From the NCBI GenBank assembly GCA_964467155.1, contig CAYXNZ010000002.1, positions 14,339 to 78,338 of the forward strand: a DNA stretch of 64,000 nucleotides. The letters run 5' to 3'. The translations under genes and the position numbers were made by a program. How positions within the stretch are numbered: position 1 is the first letter of the stretch; each line of letters opens with the position of its first letter. The notes beneath the pieces are model-generated. The model worked only from the letters and a program-made list of their open reading frames with translations, was not told the DNA's origin and did no database searches. Origin of the DNA: an uncultured Gammaproteobacteria bacterium. Lineage in GTDB: Bacteria > Patescibacteriota > Patescibacteriia > Patescibacteriales > GWC2-42-12. Shown here one piece after another: positions 30,223 to 52,787 of this stretch.

Positions 30223-30771
30223 ATGAGTAAAATTACCGTAGAACAGATCGGCGAGCTGGTTGAGCAAAGCAAGGGTGAGAATCCTCGGGTAACCAGGGAG
30301 ATCCTGCAGGCTTTCCTGCGAAACCCCAACGCCTTTCTGCGGGCAAGCGTTTATTCAGCTACCGTTGATTACGGGAAAAGCGTTGAGGAAATGGTTGTCG
30401 CCGGCAACTACGACTGGAAAAACAAAGACATCAATTCCAAAAACTTTCCCGTATCAGGTGAGGGAACGGTCAACGTCAATTTCGAGTTGATCCACCTCAA
30501 CAAGGGAGTTAGCTCCGAGGATGCTTTGACCCACCTCGAAGAAAACGGGATGAGGCCACCGACAATTGAGGAATTACTGGTGTTCGGCTCCAGTTACCCC
30601 GAAATCCAGCGGGAATTTCCGGTTATTTGCCTCGGCTCGTCTTGGGTTAATCCCGGCGGCGACCGTTACGTGCCTTACCTCAACGGGAATGGTTCGGAGC
30701 GTGGCCTCGACCTCGGCTGGTTCGACGATGACTGGAATGGGTACTGTCGTTTTCTGGCCGTTCGCAAGTAG
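30223..30771 (+). CDS. DGR target (variable) protein; the C-terminal ~46 aa are encoded by the variable repeat
   Basis: AAAGGAGCGG SD. GC-rich coding sequence. The 3' 139 bp is near-identical to the TR, with mismatches only at TR adenines. C-terminus ...SSWVNPGGDRYVPYLNGNGSERGLDLGWFDDDWNGYCRFLAVRK resembles CLec-fold DGR variable regions. Confidence 0.85.
   Translation: MSKITVEQIGELVEQSKGENPRVTREILQAFLRNPNAFLRASVYSATVDYGKSVEEMVVAGNYDWKNKDINSKNFPVSGEGTVNVNFELIHLNKGVSSEDALTHLEENGMRPPTIEELLVFGSSYPEIQREFPVICLGSSWVNPGGDRYVPYLNGNGSERGLDLGWFDDDWNGYCRFLAVRK
30631..30769 (+). repeat. DGR variable repeat (VR)
   Basis: 139-bp alignment with the TR (31142-31280). 14 mismatches, all at TR adenines (A to G 11, A to T 2, A to C 1). 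Identity ends exactly at ...gttcgcaagt. Confidence 0.9.
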
Positions 30772-30786
30772 GATCTTGTCGCCTTG

Positions 30787-30818
30787 TGTCCTTGGAACTG
30801 GAACTTTGTCCCTTGGAC
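30787..30818 (+). promoter_or_regulatory. Hairpin 18 nt downstream of the VR (gtgtcc...ggacac); candidate DGR homing-enhancing stem-loop
   Basis: Inverted repeat gtgtcc / ggacac. Its position just 3' of the VR matches the cruciform element described for the Bordetella phage DGR. Confidence 0.4.
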
Positions 30819-31141
30819 ACTTGGCAACTTGTAACCTCACAACAAAAACCCCGCACGTTTTATGCTTAGAAAAGCAGACGACGAGCGGGGTTATTTATTT
30901 TGTGATATAATAAATTTGGAAAGTAAACGAATCAGCTCACGGCTACGGTTGCGGGCGGTTGAAATCTGGATACTGCAACAAGTGAGATTATCCAAGGTTA
31001 CGGCTTTGGGTAGAGTGCCGTTGCAATATTCCATAAAATAAAAATACTTGGTATAAGATATCAGTGGGATAATAGCCCCGAATAAAATACAGCCCCGAGA
31101 GTATTCAAAGGGCGGTGGCAAAGACGATATCTTATTATTTT

Positions 31142-31280
31142 AACGGCTCGTCTTGGGTTAATCCCGACGGCAACCGTAACGTGCCTTACCTCAACAGGAA
31201 TGGTTCGAAGCGTAACCTCAACCTCAACTGGTTCGACAATGACTGGAATGAGTACTGTCGTTTTCTGGCCGTTCGCAAGT
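31142..31280 (+). repeat. DGR template repeat (TR)
   Basis: Invariant, A-rich copy of the VR located between the target gene and the RT. Followed by the ctccc-atac-ggggag hairpin plus a T-run. Confidence 0.9.
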
Positions 31281-31284
31281 CTTT

Positions 31285-31605
31285 TCATTCTCTCCCATAC
31301 GGGGGAGTTTCTTTTTTATAAAGCTTCATCCAACCGCCTATCATTCTGCCGATCTCGGCAAGTGGGGCGGATATGGCTGTCAATTTGTTTGTATCAATCG
31401 CTTTTATTTCCCAAAGAAGCTTCAAGAAGAATTTGAGCATATCAAATCTTGCGTTAAGTTCTTTTATCGTGTCGGCCTTTTTGTCTTTCGGCTGATAGCT
31501 TGCCCGCAGAGCAATTGCCAGACAATCGGTAAATAGATTATCTATCTTTTTACCCAAAGTGAAGCGGGTAATTTTCGGCAGATGAATTAAAAAAGAATGC
31601 CACAT
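31285..31605 (-). CDS. avd: DGR accessory variability determinant (Avd-like four-helix-bundle protein), inverted relative to target/TR/RT
   Basis: LNARFDMLKFFLKLLWEIKAI and LAEIGRMIGGWMK align with bAvd (LAMLRFWLRFLAGI, IAEVGRILGSWI). The frame stays open upstream through a C10 tract with no canonical start, so the N-terminus is uncertain. Confidence 0.65.
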   Translation of the reverse strand: MWHSFLIHLPKITRFTLGKKIDNLFTDCLAIALRASYQPKDKKADTIKELNARFDMLKFFLKLLWEIKAIDTNKLTAISAPLAEIGRMIGGWMKLYKKETPPYGRE

Positions 31606-31655
31606 CTGATATGCCTCACTTAATTTGGCGATAATCGGAATATCGCAATTGCTGA

Positions 31656-31665
31656 GGGGGGGGGG
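31656..31665. repeat. G10/C10 homopolymeric tract between avd (minus) and the RT start
   Basis: gggggggggg read directly at the divergent avd/RT junction. It lies inside open frames on both strands. Confidence 0.9.
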
Positions 31666-31687
31666 TAGACTTATAAGCTTTTTGTGT

Positions 31688-32692
31688 ATGAAGATTAAAT
31701 TGATTCATAGTTATAATGATATTATTTGCGTTAATAATTTGTTTTCGGCTTGGAATGAATTTATTGTCGGTAAAAAATCTAAAAAAGATGTGCAGGAATA
31801 TTCCCGCAATCTTCTTGATAACATTATATCACTTCACGAAGATTTGGCTAATAAATCTTATCGGCACGGTGGGTATCACAGTTTTTACATCAATGACCCA
31901 AAACGCAGGCACATTCATAAAGCGAGCGTGCAAGACAGATTGCTTCATCACGCCGTTTACCGCCTGCTGTATCCGTTTTTTGAGAAAACGTTTATCCACG
32001 ATTCATATTCTTGCCGTTTGGAAAAAGGCGTGTATAAAGCGATTGAACGATTTGATGCCTATGCTGGCAAGACAAGCAAAAACGATACCAAGACGGCATG
32101 GATATTAAAGTGCGACATTAAAAAATTTTTCAATAGTATTGTCCATAAAACCTTACTGGAAATTTTAAACAAACACATTCCTGACAAAGATATAATATGG
32201 CTTTTGAATAACGTCATAGACAGTTATCATAATACAAACAAGAGAGGCGTCGGCTTGCCACTCGGTAATTTGACTTCCCAGCTGTTTGCTAATGTATATA
32301 TGAATGTTTTTGATCAGTGGGTTAAGCACAGATTAAAGATTAAGCGGTATATAAGATACGCAGATGATTTTGTATTTTTCAGCAGAGATAAGCGACAGCT
32401 CCATTCTTTGATTGAGCCAGTTGGAGAATTTTTGTTTCAAACATTAGGTTTAACACTTCATCCCAAAAAGATTATCAAAAAGTCATTGTCGTCCGGCATG
32501 GATTTTTTGGGTTGGGTGCATTTGACTCACTATAAAAAATTACGGAACAAGACAAAAGAGCGGATGTTTAGAAAAATAGCCGACGATCCTAGAGATGAAG
32601 TTTTCCAGTCATATCTGGGGCTTTTAAGCCACGGCAATACTTACAAAATTGAAAAAGAATTGCGTAACCTTTATTGGCTTTTAGGAGATTAA
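31688..32692 (+). CDS. DGR reverse transcriptase
   Basis: RT motifs in order. The DGR-specific motif-4 variant LPLGNLTSQLFAN (LGxxxSQ) and YADDFVFF are present. Start at ATG 31688 (MKIKLIHSYNDIICVNNLF...). The track start at 31625 would read through the G10 tract. Confidence 0.85.
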   Translation: MKIKLIHSYNDIICVNNLFSAWNEFIVGKKSKKDVQEYSRNLLDNIISLHEDLANKSYRHGGYHSFYINDPKRRHIHKASVQDRLLHHAVYRLLYPFFEKTFIHDSYSCRLEKGVYKAIERFDAYAGKTSKNDTKTAWILKCDIKKFFNSIVHKTLLEILNKHIPDKDIIWLLNNVIDSYHNTNKRGVGLPLGNLTSQLFANVYMNVFDQWVKHRLKIKRYIRYADDFVFFSRDKRQLHSLIEPVGEFLFQTLGLTLHPKKIIKKSLSSGMDFLGWVHLTHYKKLRNKTKERMFRKIADDPRDEVFQSYLGLLSHGNTYKIEKELRNLYWLLGD

Positions 32693-42603: not shown

Positions 42604-42688
42604 GTTTTAAACAAATTAAAAAGCCAAGTTTTGGCTTTATTAGCAAGTATAGTTGATATTAACACAAGAGAATGATTTTGGCAAGTTG

Positions 42689-42720
42689 TAGATAAAAAGA
42701 ATGGCTCTGTCCGCTGGTTG
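42689..42720 (-). terminator. Hairpin (ggctctgt...acagagcc) immediately downstream of the retron-type RT on the minus strand
   Basis: 8-bp stem. On the minus strand it is followed by attcttttta. Confidence 0.5.
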
Positions 42721-42731
42721 CGAACAGAGCC

Positions 42732-43529
42732 TTAAGTTATCACTCGTTTGTAGAGTGTGACTATTTTCCGTTCAGTTTTGTTTAAGCTATCCATATTAGT
42801 AACTGAGCAAAAATAGCCATATAGTCCGTGAATTTTCTTCTTTAGTTCTGGGTCTTTTGTTTTTTTGTATTTCCACAGAAGACCGCGAAGTTTGTCGGTT
42901 TTACGGCGAGGACAAAATGTCCGACCGAGGGCTATACCTACTCCATTGATTACTACTGGACCTTTTTTAAAATCAACCACTTTAGAATCATGGTGATTCG
43001 GCTTAAGATTAACTGATTGGATTATTTTTCGTACCTTTCCTCTTATTCCTCTAGTGATAGGCGTATTAGAGGAAAAAAATAAATCGTCAGCGTATCGAGA
43101 GTATATGAGTCCGTATCGTTGACAAAGTTTTTTTGCTTCCAAGTCAATCGTATATCCGAGATAGATATTTAGTAGATCAGGGATAGACGGAAAACCCACC
43201 TTAAATTCGCCAGTTTTTCTGAAGCAGTTTTTTGCTAAAAAAATTTTTATTTCTGACTTTGTTCTGCCAACAAAAAAGGCTTTGAGGGTATAAAGGACTT
43301 CCGTCATTTGCTTTAAACTGATATTTGTGGAAGCACCTTTTATGTCCACCCAATAAATATACTGATTTTAATTGTGAATTCTGATGTTTGCGGTTGGCGA
43401 ACATCCCTTTTTGTATCCCGTTGCGTAAGGCAATCCATTTAAGTATACATTTGCTAATTGCCTCAAGAAGGCAATTAGAACTTTATGGATTAGACGGTCG
43501 TTTTCACTAAGGATTATAGATTTTTGCAT
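42732..43529 (-). pseudogene. Retron-type reverse transcriptase interrupted by an in-frame TAA (plus 43368-43370)
   Basis: AAAGGAGG SD plus ATG 43529. The N-part ...LPYATGYKKGCSPTANIRIHN* carries the retron A.Gf.kgRS...NA..H motif. After the stop, in the same frame: VDIKGASTNIS (DLxDFFxSI-like), GFPSIPDLLNIYL, and GLIYSRYADDLFFS (compare Ec86 GLIYTRYADDL). Confidence 0.65.
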
Positions 43530-43568
43530 TTTTCAAAGTTCGTTACCTCCTTTATTCTATTTTTGTAG

Positions 43569-43672
43569 TGGCAGATCGGACAAAACACAAGAGGGGATTA
43601 ATAGCCCGTGGCGTTAACCCTACGCTTCGCTTGAGCGGAGCGTAATTCAATTATCTTTGTCCGAATCTGCCA
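43569..43672 (-). ncRNA. Candidate retron msr/msd non-coding RNA (a1/a2 inverted repeats flanking ~71 nt), upstream of the RT
   Basis: tggcagatcggacaaa (43569-43584) versus tttgtccgaatctgcca (43656-43672): 16/17-nt inverted repeat. Internal hairpin cgcttcgc-ttga-gcggagcg. Located ~35 nt upstream of the RT SD on the same strand. Confidence 0.4.
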
Positions 43673-43862
43673 TCATATTAAGTTAATACAATATTTTACA
43701 TTTGGCAAGTATTGACAAAAAAAGAATATTATTATAATTTATATGAGTAGCCAAAGGGCTATTTTAATTTAAACAATTTAATAAATCTCTCATACTCTCT
43801 TTATTTTCCTTGTCCTAAATGTTTAGGATGAACTAGAGAGTAGAGGTAAAAAGGAAAAAAAT

Positions 43863-44552
43863 ATGGAAATACCAAGTATTGAGCAGATGCTTAAAGCAGG
43901 TATGCATTTTGGGCATCGTACAAGTAAGTGGCATCCAGGTATGGAGCCTTTTATTTTTACTTCAAGAAAAGGCGTTCACATTATTGACTTAACTAAGACG
44001 CAGAAAAAACTTGAAGAAGCATTAAACTATTTAAAAAAAATAGCTTCTGAGAACAAGCAGATTTTATTGGTCGGTACTAAGGTGCAGGTTAAAAAACCAT
44101 TAAAAAACGTAGCTGAAGAAGTTGGCATGCCTTACGTAGCTGAACGTTGGTTAGGTGGATTTTTAACTAATTTTGATGTAATCCGTGGATTAATCAGAAA
44201 ATATAAAGATTTGACTGAAAAGAAACAGGCTGGAAAATTAGAAAAATATACGAAGAAAGAGCAATTAAATTTTGATCGAGAAATCGCTAAACTAGAAACA
44301 AGCGTCGGCGGGTTAAAAAATTTAACCAAAGTGCCTGACGTTATTTTTATTTGGGATATTAAAAAAGAAAAGACTGCTTTAACCGAAGCAAAAAAGAAAA
44401 ATATTCCAGTTGTTGCTATTTGCGACACGAATGTTAATCCTAAAAATGTAAATTATATTATACCAGCTAATGATGACGCAACCAAAACTATTAAAATGGT
44501 TTTGAATTTAGTCAAAGAGGCAATTACTGAGGGTAAAAAAGAAGTAAAATAA
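43863..44552 (+). CDS. rpsB: 30S ribosomal protein S2
   Basis: MLKAGMHFGHRTSKWHPGMEPFIF... canonical S2. 229 aa. Confidence 0.95.
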   Translation: MEIPSIEQMLKAGMHFGHRTSKWHPGMEPFIFTSRKGVHIIDLTKTQKKLEEALNYLKKIASENKQILLVGTKVQVKKPLKNVAEEVGMPYVAERWLGGFLTNFDVIRGLIRKYKDLTEKKQAGKLEKYTKKEQLNFDREIAKLETSVGGLKNLTKVPDVIFIWDIKKEKTALTEAKKKNIPVVAICDTNVNPKNVNYIIPANDDATKTIKMVLNLVKEAITEGKKEVK

Positions 44553-48479: not shown

Positions 48480-48824
48480 ATGAGTAAAAAGGTAAAAATA
48501 CAGTTGGCTCGTGAATTTAGGAAAAGTCCCACAAAATCAGAAAAAATTATGTGGGATGAATTAAGAAGAAATAATTTTTTAAAGTTAAATTTTAGAAGAC
48601 AGCATTTGATTGAAGGTTTTGTAGTTGATTTTTATTGCCACAAATTAAAATTAATTATAGAGATAGACGGTAATATACATGAATATCAACAAGACGAAGA
48701 CGAAGAAAGACAAAAAATAATAGAGCAAAAAGGAAATGTATTTTATAGGATAAAGAGTCAAGACGTAGAAAACAATATAGAAAATATTTTAAGCAAATTG
48801 ATTGATTTTATTAATTTTATATAA
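48480..48824 (+). CDS. DUF559 domain protein (very-short-patch-repair endonuclease-like fold)
   Basis: REFRKSPTKSEKIMWDELRRNNF...FRRQHLIEGFVVDFYCHKLKLIIEIDGNIH matches the DUF559 pattern (REFRKNPT..E..LW..LR....FRRQ..I..YIVDFYC....L.IE.DG..H). Confidence 0.7.
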   Translation: MSKKVKIQLAREFRKSPTKSEKIMWDELRRNNFLKLNFRRQHLIEGFVVDFYCHKLKLIIEIDGNIHEYQQDEDEERQKIIEQKGNVFYRIKSQDVENNIENILSKLIDFINFI

Positions 48825-49412: not shown

Positions 49413-52400
49413 ATGTTTACAAGAAGGAGGCTTGTTTTTTTATTGTGTTTTTCTTTTTTATTTTTTGCGGTTTGTGTTTTGTCTTATGACAATTTGATTA
49501 CTCATCCGAAGCTAACAGAATCAGCAATTAATATTTACGAGCAGGAAGCTGGTAAATATTTAAATTATCAACAAACAAATTGGATTATTAAAGGTTCAAT
49601 TGATGAAGACAATGATCCGCGGTATTTAAACCATTTTTATAACCCACAAACTGGGCGAGGGCTAAACGATGGTTGGTTTCATGGTCAATCAGCTAAAAAT
49701 TGGGCATTTTCTCAAGATAGTGCTACTGGCGATTATTCAGTTGGCGCTATTTTTAATAATTATAGAAACGGTGATTTAATGCGTGCTTATCAGGGTATTG
49801 GCCATATTTTACATTTAATTCAGGATATGAGCGTGCCGGCACATGTTAGAAATGATGCTCATCCAAGCGGCGACCCGTTTGAAGAATGGGCAGAACATTA
49901 TGGGACAATAAACGCTGACAAAATACAAAAAATAAATATCAATAGTATAGAAAATGTTTTTGATGATTTAGCTTTTTTTACTAGTAATAATTTTTTTAGT
50001 AAAGATACAATTGTAATTGAAGAATTGGATAAATATAAAATAGATGAGGAACTAATTGACAACAGAAAAAGGTTTTATTTGATTAATAAAATAGATAAAC
50101 AAGAATATAAATTAGTATATTCAAAAAATCCAGATTCCATAATGCCAGTTTTTCAAATTGATGATGATTTTAAATTAAATCTTGACTATTGGAATATGCT
50201 TTATCCAAAAGCAGTTGGGTATAGCGCGGGCGTGATTGAATATTTTATTAAAGAATTTAAAAAGATAGATCAAGAGAAAAATGAAACAACAATAAGTTTA
50301 TGGCAAAAGATAAAAAATAGCACAAACAATCTTTCTTCAGATTTAGCTTATACGTGGGGCGATACTTTTATTGATAGTAGGATTAGATTAGATAATATTT
50401 TAGCAAGTGCGTTTAGTGGATATACTAAAAGTCAACAAGGATTTGAATTTTTTGCTGAAGCTAATAGAGAAATTTTAACTGATTTAAGTCAAAGGAGTGT
50501 AAATATTGCTCAAAATTTGTCTGGCAAGGTATTATCGGCAGAGGATACCATTTCAAAACAACAGATTCAGACAAAAATAGAAACAGAAGTGATTCAAGAT
50601 TTGAAAAAAAATAATCCAGATGTGGCCAGAGTGATTGATGGCGATACAATTGAATTAACTACTGGTGAAAAAGTTCGTTATATTGGCATTGATACACCAG
50701 AATTAAACAGCGAAGGATCAGATGACGATGAATGTTTAGCTTGGCTAGCCAGATTAAGAAATATGGAGCTTTTAAGCATGGGCGAGTTAAAATTAGTAGA
50801 AGATTCAACTGCCAAGACAGATAAATACGGCAGATTATTGCGTTATGTTTATATAAACAATTTGTTCGTTAATGACGTATTAGTTAAAGAAGGATTAGCT
50901 GAAATATTTTTTTGCCAACCAGGCTGGGAAAATTGTCCAGTAACAACAGATAAAAATAAAGAGAATATAATCAAAGCTTCAAACCAAGAAGCTAAAAATA
51001 ATGCTAGAGGAATTTATTCTGGCGTTTGCGATAAGGAAGATGAGCCTGAAAAAGAAATTATTAAAAAATTTGAAGATAAAATTGAAGAAAAAATAATCTT
51101 GGAAGAAAAATTTATAGAAAATAATACAGCTAGCACGTCAACGTCAACAATGATGCAATTACCTCTTGTTTGCGCGCCAGCTCATAATAATGATTCAGAT
51201 AACACAAATGTTGTTGTTTCAGAGATAGCGAATTTTTCTGTTTTTGATATAACTTCAAGTAGTACTAATATTATTGCCAGTACTACCGTTGGATTAAGTT
51301 ATACAATTAGCAATCAGGAAGCAGTCGAAGGATATTTTTTGTCAGAAGCTTCTACAACACCCGCAATTGACGATGCTAGTTGGGAAACTACTGCGCCAAG
51401 TCAATTTGTTTTATCAAGTAGCGATGGTAAAAAAATAATTTATTTTTGGTTAAAATATAATAGTGATAATATAACAAATTTTGTCAGTTCAACAATTATT
51501 CTAGATACAACAGCGCCGACAATGCCAATGATTACTAGCATAGAACCGTTAAGTGATATTTATTGGGTAAATACTAGTGAAGTTTTGTTAAGCGGAGAAA
51601 AAGAAATTGGAGTTGATGCGATTTTGATAAATGGTGTAGCATATAGTGCGACCAGCAGTGAAGAAACATGGAATGTTAATTATACTTTTGATTTTATTTG
51701 TTCTGACTCAAGCTCCTGGGGTAATTTAGTTGCTTATGATTGTATGACTGAATATTGCAATGGACATAAAGAAGAATGCGATGGTTTGAGTGATGAAGAG
51801 ATGAGAGTATTTTTTTATGAAAGAGAATTGATTTTAAAAGCGAAAAATGAAGCAGGTAATTATTCAGAAGAAGCTGAAAAAGTTTTTAGATTGGATAATT
51901 TTTTGCCAAAAATTTGGGGAGCATTATCAACTAAATCAATTCCCAGTAGTTTTGTGTATTTTTATATGTCAAATTTAGAAGATTTTATGTCGGATTTATT
52001 GTTTTTTAATTCCGGTGTGAGCGGGTATGAGTTTGAATATAAATTTAATGATTCAGAAGATTGGGTTGTTGGAGAAATTGTCGAGGTTAATTATCCTAAC
52101 GCGACTCTTCGGGCAGTATTGTCAGATGAAGGTAATTTTGATTTACGTTTTAGAATGCTTGATTTTGCTGGTAATGTTGGCGAGTGGTACGAAGGTTTGA
52201 CGGCGGAAGTTAATTTTTATCCGGTAATTAGCGAAATTTATATGGATGAAATTAATAGTGGCAGTGAATGGATAGAGCTTTATAATCCATCGGTCAGTGA
52301 TATTGATATCGGTGGCTGGGTAATTGATACCAAAGCAGACGAAGAGGCCGACGTTACTTTGCCAGATGACGCGATAATTCCGGCTTATGGATTTTATTTT

Positions 52401-52787
52401 ATCGGCGATCAAGTATCAGGAGAATGGAATCCCGATAATGTTGACTGGATAGTTCCAGACTACACCGAGACTATGACATTGACAAATGACGATGGCTGGG
52501 TTAGGTTGAGAAAAAGTACTGGTGGTGAAATTGTTGATACAGTTGGTTGGCAGAAAACAAAAGTTAAAGCAGAAGTTTATGAAGGCAGAGAAGTTAATAC
52601 TTTTGGTTGTAAAGAAGGTTATAGTATTGAAAGGTTAAATATGTTACAAGTACTTTCTGATAACACAGATCTTTATCAAAATAAAGGGAATAATTTTGAT
52701 AGGAATTATAATAGCGGGGATTTTGTTGTTAGAGAAACACCCAATCCACAAAATAGTTCGTCAGCAGTTGAAGGGGCGGGGGATTAA
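49413..52787 (+). CDS. Large secreted multidomain nuclease: N-terminal zinc-dependent phospholipase C / S1-P1 nuclease-like domain, central staphylococcal-nuclease (SNase) domain, C-terminal lamin-tail domain
   Basis: Signal/TM at the N-terminus. HFYNPQTGRGL and GIGHILHLIQDMSVPAHVRND (compare B. cereus PLC HFYDPDNGKTY, LGLSLHYLGDVNQPMH). SNase motifs VIDGDTIELTTGEKVRYIGIDTPE...KYGRLLRYVYI...LVKEGLAE. LTD motif VISEIYMDEINSGSEWIELYNPS...IGGWVI. Confidence 0.7.
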   Translation: MFTRRRLVFLLCFSFLFFAVCVLSYDNLITHPKLTESAINIYEQEAGKYLNYQQTNWIIKGSIDEDNDPRYLNHFYNPQTGRGLNDGWFHGQSAKNWAFSQDSATGDYSVGAIFNNYRNGDLMRAYQGIGHILHLIQDMSVPAHVRNDAHPSGDPFEEWAEHYGTINADKIQKININSIENVFDDLAFFTSNNFFSKDTIVIEELDKYKIDEELIDNRKRFYLINKIDKQEYKLVYSKNPDSIMPVFQIDDDFKLNLDYWNMLYPKAVGYSAGVIEYFIKEFKKIDQEKNETTISLWQKIKNSTNNLSSDLAYTWGDTFIDSRIRLDNILASAFSGYTKSQQGFEFFAEANREILTDLSQRSVNIAQNLSGKVLSAEDTISKQQIQTKIETEVIQDLKKNNPDVARVIDGDTIELTTGEKVRYIGIDTPELNSEGSDDDECLAWLARLRNMELLSMGELKLVEDSTAKTDKYGRLLRYVYINNLFVNDVLVKEGLAEIFFCQPGWENCPVTTDKNKENIIKASNQEAKNNARGIYSGVCDKEDEPEKEIIKKFEDKIEEKIILEEKFIENNTASTSTSTMMQLPLVCAPAHNNDSDNTNVVVSEIANFSVFDITSSSTNIIASTTVGLSYTISNQEAVEGYFLSEASTTPAIDDASWETTAPSQFVLSSSDGKKIIYFWLKYNSDNITNFVSSTIILDTTAPTMPMITSIEPLSDIYWVNTSEVLLSGEKEIGVDAILINGVAYSATSSEETWNVNYTFDFICSDSSSWGNLVAYDCMTEYCNGHKEECDGLSDEEMRVFFYERELILKAKNEAGNYSEEAEKVFRLDNFLPKIWGALSTKSIPSSFVYFYMSNLEDFMSDLLFFNSGVSGYEFEYKFNDSEDWVVGEIVEVNYPNATLRAVLSDEGNFDLRFRMLDFAGNVGEWYEGLTAEVNFYPVISEIYMDEINSGSEWIELYNPSVSDIDIGGWVIDTKADEEADVTLPDDAIIPAYGFYFIGDQVSGEWNPDNVDWIVPDYTETMTLTNDDGWVRLRKSTGGEIVDTVGWQKTKVKAEVYEGREVNTFGCKEGYSIERLNMLQVLSDNTDLYQNKGNNFDRNYNSGDFVVRETPNPQNSSSAVEGAGD

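Follow-up and report, generated by a model that had tools for sequence, protein, structure and literature searches.

Is the reverse transcriptase (RT) gene lying between rpmE and rpsB in a Patescibacteria chromosome, with a stop codon inside its coding frame, a broken retron or an enzyme that stands alone? The gene occupies positions 42732–43529 (minus strand) of a stretch of 64,000 nucleotides (nt) from contig CAYXNZ010000002.1 (assembly GCA_964467155.1), which was analysed at its full length and is referred to here as the window. An earlier sequence-only reading had offered the two descriptions as alternatives, a "recently inactivated retron" or a "stand-alone RT". Our analysis indicates that both apply: the clade to which the gene belongs is stand-alone, and the window copy is inactivated. 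The locus is probably a stand-alone ("orphan") retron cassette of ~1.0 kb, recently inactivated, in the rpmE–rpsB spacer.

The interrupted reading frame

On translation, the RT frame runs for 265 codons from ATG 43529 to TAA 42734–42732 on the minus strand, with a sole internal stop, TAA 43370–43368, at codon 54. The 53 codons ahead of this stop (43371–43529) carry RT motifs 1 and 2 and region X (N-I-R-I-H, 43388–43374). The 211 codons behind it (42735–43367) carry D62 (43346–43344), the YADD motif (43094–43083), region Y (I-N-G, 42950–42942) and a K181→D replacement (42989–42987). The motifs quoted in the sequence-only reading are all present in a single frame, GYKKGCS...ANIRIH on the 5′ side of the TAA and VDIKGASTNIS, GFPSIPDLLNIYL and GLIYSRYADDLFF on the 3′ side. 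As the same frame is open on both sides, the interruption is a nonsense codon rather than a frameshift, as had been proposed. The Shine-Dalgarno sequence AAAGGAGG reported ahead of ATG 43529 is found at 43553–43546. The single stop compares with a mean of 18.8 in shuffled sequences, none of 20,000 shuffles giving one or fewer, and the other two frames of the region hold 23 and 19 stops. Thus, the frame is not a product of chance, and its inactivation is probably recent. Gene callers have reported only one gene here, the C-terminal product, which is a public protein of 191 residues (P0001) known from several contigs.

Five loci from separate assemblies (ENA ERZ27315522, ERZ27315536 and ERZ27315495; JGI 3300025586 and 3300025669) are 100% identical to the window over 1040–1300 nt, a stretch that spans the non-coding RNA (ncRNA) described below, the TAA and the whole RT. 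An intact allele of the window RT is absent from the 90%-identity clusters of ~15 billion predicted proteins. Together, these two results make the TAA a fixed feature of the population. In intact relatives, it aligns to a variable column (K/Q/N/G/R) of the segment H-R-x-N-R-Y-F-Y-L-x-D-I, and AAA or CAA is one substitution away. TAA terminates 43 of the 59 long open reading frames (ORFs) of the window and is its main stop codon; reassignment of the codon was therefore rejected and the standard code retained.

A retron-type reverse transcriptase

Retron models and solved retron RTs are the best matches of the window protein. Joined across the stop, the 265-residue protein matches the PADLOC models RT_II-A (6e-23), RT_III-A (4e-22) and RT_I-B (2e-21), and the NCBIfam model retron_St85_RT (NF038233) at 2e-26, with 92.8 bits against a cut-off of 235. 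The hidden Markov model (HMM) classification among retron and DRT clades suggested by the sequence-only reading thus comes out on the retron side. Searched against PDB sequences, the window protein alone returns the retron Ec83 RT first (1e-10). The family profile returns the RTs of Ec83, Ec86, Ec78, Ec67, Kva2 and Eco8 at 5e-30 to 8e-12, with Ec83 and Ec86 on top (~1e-29 to 5e-30).

The hallmarks of retron RTs are region X, NAXXH between RT2 and RT3, in which the histidine is most conserved, and region Y, a VTG triplet in RT7 with the glycine most conserved (Mestre et al. 2020, PMC7736814). Region X of the window RT reads N48-I-R-I-H52, with H52 invariant in 19 and in 73 relatives. Region Y reads I194-N-G196, where G196 is 99% conserved and the family consensus is V-I-N-G-I-G, so that only the glycine fits the canonical triplet. 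Judged by these model and PDB matches and by regions X and Y, the window enzyme is a retron-type RT.

A structured RNA upstream of the gene

The sequence-only reading overlooked an ncRNA in front of the gene. This GC-rich (~50%), msr-msd-like RNA of 102 nt (43570–43671, minus strand) sits in the interval that separates the start of the RT from the rpsB promoter. Its first arm, a1 (GGCAGAUUCGGACAAA, 43671–43656), is followed by G 43655, an 11-nt spacer, a hairpin with a CAAG loop (43643–43622), a second hairpin (43620–43594), the sequence CUUGUGU and the second arm, a2 (UUUGUCCGAUCUGCC, 43584–43570), and the two arms pair into a closing stem of 15–16 bp. The minimum free energy (MFE) is −45.2 kcal/mol (z = −5.9; equalled by none of 200 shuffles). 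Rfam gives no family match in this region at the gathering threshold or at E ≤ 10. As a candidate for the branching G expected at the end of the a1/a2 stem, G 43655 directly follows a1, but it pairs with a U in the MFE fold, and alignment of the relatives gave no conserved context for such a G.

The regions upstream of the relatives' RTs hold perfect inverted repeats of 10–14 nt (with longer imperfect closing stems in the folds), which enclose 173–239 nt and end 22–284 nt before the RT start codon. The enclosed part starts with a hairpin whose loop is CAAG or CAAU, after which come another, short hairpin and then a longer one of msd type; a CCUCAGCG-like motif occurs in most of these ncRNAs. 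In an RNAalifold consensus of the two-hairpin module from seven relatives, 12 of the 18 pairs have compensatory changes. A covariance model, R1, was built from relatives only, with the window left out. Across both strands of the 64-kb window, its top match is at 43592–43646 (minus strand; 22.8 bits, next match 12.4 bits); the E-value of 0.0014 is rough, since the default filters missed the ncRNA and the match came with filters off. R1 also matches two sites on which it was not trained, one upstream of the RT in locus L094 (22 bits) and the other the a1/a2-enclosed module of L087, and gives no match on more distant Saccharibacteria loci. The training set has a flaw, in that the L088 row probably comes from a second, RT-proximal copy of the module and not from that within a1/a2. 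Locus L087, which has the same sequence as L088, contains two msr-like two-hairpin modules upstream of its RT (2323–2374 and 2593–2645); the one within a1/a2 scores 26.3 bits and the one nearer the RT, which was used in training R1, 45.9 bits.

The window ncRNA has only 75 nt between its arms, compared to 173–239 nt in the relatives, and is about half their size. From the model match and the folds, we consider it homologous to the relatives' ncRNAs but reduced, with one of three hairpin modules apparently missing. The surviving second hairpin is ambiguous and may be either msr hairpin 2 or a shortened msd hairpin.

Relatives and gene neighbourhoods

Exhaustive HMMER searching of 1.84 billion representative proteins gave 1864 matches at E ≤ 1e-3, 40 of them at E ≤ 1e-30. 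The best non-self matches are intact proteins of ~300 residues with 34–40% identity, aligned over query residues ~10–262 and thus spanning the stop position (top match 36%, 4e-43, query 14–262), and none of the relatives has a stop at the position of the TAA. Intact related copies, for which the sequence-only reading had proposed a search, therefore exist, but only at ≤40% identity; a word-based protein search found the gene itself and weak retron matches only. In the profile search, a distinct core family at ≥319 bits is followed by a drop to ≤247 bits. Named members of the clade are labelled "Patescibacteria group bacterium" and "Candidatus Parcubacteria bacterium", and the best loci in genomes of GTDB species belong to Saccharibacteria and Paceibacterota. 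Many of the PADLOC models for retron RT types match the intact relatives at 80–112 bits, and none stands out. No close relative was found on viral contigs, where the retron RTs are distant (≤35% identity over partial segments). The set of relatives is small, at about 9 distinct loci. In a Paceibacterota relative (L010, 4848–6152), the C-terminus of a retron-like RT is fused to a primase-like segment with a CHC2 zinc finger (CPFHHEKTRSF...CHCFGC), an arrangement that resembles RT-Toprim/primase fusions.

The window gene is flanked by rpmE-prfA-prmC and, beyond its other end, by rpsB-tsf-PSP1. As the sequence-only reading had stated, no effector gene adjoins the RT, which is followed by a terminator and rpmE; the neighbours are housekeeping genes. 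The intrinsic terminator lies directly 3′ of the RT stop codon (42732–42734), at 42693–42731 on the minus strand, and consists of GGCTCTGTTCGCAACCAGCGGACAGAGCC and a T-run, with 12 pairs, 8 of them G-C, in a hairpin at 42731–42703. The other 63 ORFs of the window match only RT- and Cas1-type models of PADLOC, each model matched by one ORF, and we attribute these matches to a separate RT of a diversity-generating retroelement (DGR).

Eight neighbourhoods of relatives were compared. The RT lies between a divergent P-type ATPase gene and defence-like genes on the opposite strand in L006 (protein P0005), upstream of greA in L088 (P0006), downstream of rplJ-rplL in L092 (P0007), and convergent with rplL-rplJ in L090 and L091 (P0009). 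It is located upstream of a P-type ATPase gene in L093 (P0011), of an NYN-domain gene in L094 (P0012) and of mraZ-rsmH in L096 (P0014). In L089 (P0008), unrelated genes without a family match stand on either side, with genes for a BipA-like GTPase and a P-type ATPase farther off. No neighbouring gene is conserved across the eight neighbourhoods. A terminator-like hairpin follows within a few bases of the RT stop in L089, L092, L094 and L096, as in the window. The lack of a common neighbour and the terminators after the RT indicate that the clade consists of monocistronic ncRNA-RT units set among housekeeping genes. On the basis of these comparisons, the family appears to be a previously unclassified clade of effector-less retrons associated with Patescibacteria. 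A gene for a P-type cation ATPase recurs near the RT, divergent and upstream in L006, directly downstream and co-oriented in L093, and 4 kb off in L089, which may reflect synteny of related genomes or chance.

Filled and empty sites

The sequence-only reading also overlooked that the cassette is missing from the same spacer in sister lineages. Two RpsB homologues, P0159 (96% identity) and P0161 (93%), lie on contigs in which rpmE and rpsB are adjacent and divergent, 289–369 nt apart, with no RT between them. The flanks of the sister loci L101 and L102 have about 90–93% nucleotide identity to the window and align up to 42692 and again from 43712; L101 has ~38 nt in place of the window's ~1019 nt. 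The same empty site is seen in L097 and L098 (80–88% identity); over the four loci, the left flank aligns up to 42692/42686. Some empty-site contigs, such as ERZ27315523, belong to the same accession series as the window's assemblies. The sister-locus alignment places the whole cassette of putative promoter, ncRNA, RT gene and terminator at 42693–43711 (minus strand, ~1.0 kb), although residual similarity could put the left junction as far as ~42706. By this alignment, the ~1.0-kb cassette is lineage-specific, and parsimony favours its gain in the window's lineage.

Alternatively, the cassette could be ancestral and have been deleted from the sister lineages, in which case an old resident would have decayed in place. 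This alternative concerns the history of the element only. It would account for the several lesions of the RT, which diverges more than any other member of its clade, and for a cassette GC content (35–39%) near the host value of 33%. Such a deletion could have been mediated by imperfect repeats near both ends of the cassette, which resemble the rpmE promoter. However, two separate sister lineages are both empty and without a cassette remnant, so that a single gain is more parsimonious, and an old neutral relic should hold many more stops than one. We therefore consider an ancestral cassette unlikely, and gain of the cassette in the window's lineage remains our preferred history.

Two promoter-like sites lie upstream of the ncRNA on the minus strand, one from a match in a consensus scan (TTGTCA 43718–43713, a 17-nt spacer, AATATT 43695–43690) and the other read from the sequence (TTGCCA 43708–43703, a 17-nt spacer, TAACTT 43685–43680). 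The latter (43708–43680) is similar to a promoter-like site of rpmE at 42684–42656, which is located between the RT terminator and rpmE; both are known as consensus or sequence matches. On the other side of the spacer, rpsB starts at 43863 on the plus strand. The resemblance extends over the cassette promoter-like region at 43683–43709 (CTTGCCAAA...TTGTATTAA, minus strand) and the rpmE promoter-like region at 42656–42685 (CTTGCCAAA...TTGTGTTAA), which are equally spaced. The perfect 9-nt repeat TTTGGCAAG occurs at 42677–42685 and 43701–43709; the window holds four copies compared to 1.2 expected, a number also reached in 2 of 100 shuffled sequences. Either a duplication at insertion or the presence of two promoters of the same type could explain the resemblance. 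A target-site duplication was considered and not accepted, as the left copy falls ~20 nt beyond where the junction probably is, the window has four copies and the repeat coincides with −35 elements.

Inactivation of the window copy

By analogy with established retron biology, a single promoter would drive both the ncRNA and the RT of an intact member. As expected for its family, the enzyme would bind the msr hairpins, start synthesis on the 2′-OH of a branching G beside the a1/a2 stem and reverse-transcribe the msd part, yielding multicopy single-stranded DNA (msDNA), with no protein effector encoded in cis by members of the clade. In the window copy, translation would end at codon 54, between motif 2/region X and catalytic motif A. 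The ncRNA may still be transcribed and a 53-residue stub expressed, but no full-length RT would be made owing to the TAA, and msDNA is predicted to be absent.

The stop codon may not be the only lesion. In an HMM of 73 full-length relatives, the window protein aligns only from position 32 of 301, and the N-terminal 31 positions, with the family consensus ..F..F...D.NPLSG..K, are absent, a feature overlooked in the sequence-only reading. Relatives of 260–266 residues, considered as examples of a naturally short N-terminus, proved to be artefacts of contig ends; in P0010, only 17 nt separate the annotated start from the end of the contig, and the sequence upstream carries the frame on into the family motif, DPNPSM.... 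It had likewise been overlooked that the Shine-Dalgarno sequence is better placed for an out-of-frame TTG at 43536 than for ATG 43529, with 9 nt compared to 16 nt from the end of GGAGG. This TTG opens a short frame, MKNAKIYNP* (43507–43536, minus strand). Against the family HMM, the peptide of the TTG frame joined to the RT scores 255.9 bits, compared to 246.8 for the RT core and 247.9 with the N-terminus of the ATG frame. These values weakly suggest that translation ancestrally began at the TTG and that 1 nt was inserted near 43510. A programmed +1 frameshift at CCU-UAG-U was judged unlikely, as this is not a known slippery pattern. At conserved columns (≥85%), the window deviates in 14 of 41, compared to a mean of 2.7 in the 73 relatives (standard deviation 2.4, maximum 12); among the deviations are K181→D and G108→E, at positions where 100% of relatives have K and 99% have G, respectively.

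Several observations weigh against a recently inactivated cassette with damage beyond the TAA. Eight of the 14 deviations simply reflect an N-terminus that is missing or rearranged, and the other 6 are within the relatives' range (maximum 12). The argument for a frameshift at the start consists of ~9 bits and the spacing of the Shine-Dalgarno sequence. The element retains its catalytic D62 and YADD and nearly perfect ncRNA stems, which would be unexpected for a long-dead element in a genome of 33% GC. An msd stem as short as ~10 bp is at the low end of, though within, the 10–50 bp quoted for retrons (PMC7736814), so the ncRNA may be minimal rather than defective. In addition, the window element is known from a single allele, and the choice between gain and loss of the cassette draws on parsimony over two sister lineages. 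The retention of D62, YADD, the ncRNA stems and 211 open codons implies that the knock-out is young or that the element arrived already damaged.

The same retention could also mean that the element still functions, through read-through or suppression of the TAA that yields a low level of full-length RT, or through a 53-residue piece that assembles with a C-terminal piece restarted at GTG 43349 into an active enzyme, the stop acting as a throttle on expression. The open frame of 211 codons with its catalytic residues, the well-preserved ncRNA and the presence of the same allele in all five assemblies would fit such a design. However, this genome uses TAA as a standard stop, and more often than any other, and the RF1 gene lies two genes away. 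No relative has a stop at that position, no Shine-Dalgarno sequence precedes GTG 43349, and the window encodes no suppressor tRNA, its tRNAs being only those for Thr, Tyr and Trp. As the missing N-terminus and K181D also favour decay, we regard continued function as highly improbable and an inactivated cassette as the better account.

Other classes of reverse transcriptase

The scores of the window RT leave some room for a class other than retrons. It falls below the curated cut-offs of all named models, including Pfam RVT_1 (27.2 bits, cut-off 29.6) and the retron_St85_RT model given above, and scores 60–80 bits with each of PADLOC types II-A, III-A, I-B and VI, with no clear best type. In addition, RTs of Patescibacteria are overwhelmingly of the DGR type (PMC8632793), and a separate DGR is present elsewhere in the window. 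A DGR, a group II intron, or a UG/DRT or Abi RT could thus be envisaged. Nevertheless, the cassette has no significant repeat of the template/variable type anywhere in the window, and the genuine DGR is a separate locus at 30.2–32.7 kb, which excludes a DGR identity. The group II model TIGR04416 gives 30.6 bits against a cut-off of 300, Rfam finds no intron RNA and the protein has only 265 residues; a group II intron, named in the sequence-only reading as an outcome that would overturn the retron assignment, was not seen. DRT2 was rejected on similar grounds (Drt2 model, 28 bits against a cut-off of 390). The family profile matches PDB group II and Drt2 RTs at only ~1e-7 to 1e-6 (~1e-6 for Drt2), compared to ~1e-29 for retrons. 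Since the top PDB matches are all retron RTs, and regions X and Y and the a1/a2-flanked ncRNA are present, we assign a non-retron RT a very small probability. Finally, a sequencing or assembly artefact in an intact gene, conceivable as the interruption is one base change from a sense codon, has a negligible probability, because five assemblies, which represent different samples and come from two data sources, agree over 1040–1300 nt including 43368–43370, where the sequence-only reading had allowed for assembly error, and no intact allele exists among 15 billion predicted proteins; the TAA is real.

Other features of the window

The DGR at 30223–32689 (plus strand) is complete and unrelated to the retron cassette. 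Its target ORF (30223–30768) has a variable repeat (30633–30769) with 91% identity to the 137-nt template repeat (31144–31280), and all 12 mismatches are template adenines changed to G or T in the variable repeat. Its RT has 355 residues and a YADD motif (31625–32689). Farther along the plus strand, a 1124-residue ORF with a staphylococcal-nuclease domain and a lamin-tail domain (49413–52784) is preceded by a DUF559 endonuclease-like ORF (48480–48821); the sister locus L100 has a DUF559 gene in the same place, after the GAPDH gene.

Relation to known retrons and significance

Orphan cassettes of the form (msr-msd)-RT are known from the Retron-Eco5 (Ec107) branch of RT clade 2 and from a branch of clade 11 (Mestre et al. 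2020, PMC7736814). Like the window clade, they have an ncRNA bounded by inverted repeats directly upstream of an RT of ~300 residues and no associated protein gene. In contrast, these branches are mostly found in Gammaproteobacteria (clade 2) and Actinobacteria (clade 11), whereas the named and best-matching members of the window clade are Patescibacteria. The window copy also differs in being broken and shortened, and its clade reaches only 80–112 bits against the PADLOC retron RT types. The RTs of Ec83, Ec86, the Ec78/St85 family, Ec67 and Eco8, which are the best sequence matches, have RT motifs 1–7, the region X histidine and the region Y glycine in common with the window RT. However, the retrons to which they belong are tripartite, with effectors of the ATPase/HNH, NDT or Toprim type, and the window has no effector. 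Compared to Ec83, the window RT starts about 40 residues later (query residue 15 corresponds to Ec83 residue 54). DRT2 (UG2) also combines an RT and an upstream structured ncRNA without a separate effector gene, but this is a functional analogy only, as its RT is of a different class and nothing in the window suggests rolling-circle templating.

A full-text literature search found no paper describing retrons in Patescibacteria. For orphan retrons in general, it is an acknowledged open question whether effectors act in trans or the role is other than defence (PMC7736814). A broader proposal, which we hold to be rather improbable, is that the intact relatives are self-contained, effector-free retron units of ~1 kb (promoter, ncRNA, RT and terminator) that come and go between housekeeping genes of close strains, either as mobile retrons or in a non-defence cellular role, the window copy being a decayed example beside an empty-site sister genome.

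Taken alone, the window copy, probably a dead gene, has no wider consequence; what gives it value is the intact, effector-less clade associated with Patescibacteria to which it leads. Comparison of the filled site (the window) with the empty sites (L101 and L102) delimits a minimal retron cassette to a precision of a few tens of bases, and the R1 ncRNA model together with the RT alignment could seed a survey of the clade. A compact, monocistronic family in genomes of <1 Mb would offer a tractable place to address the question of orphan retrons.

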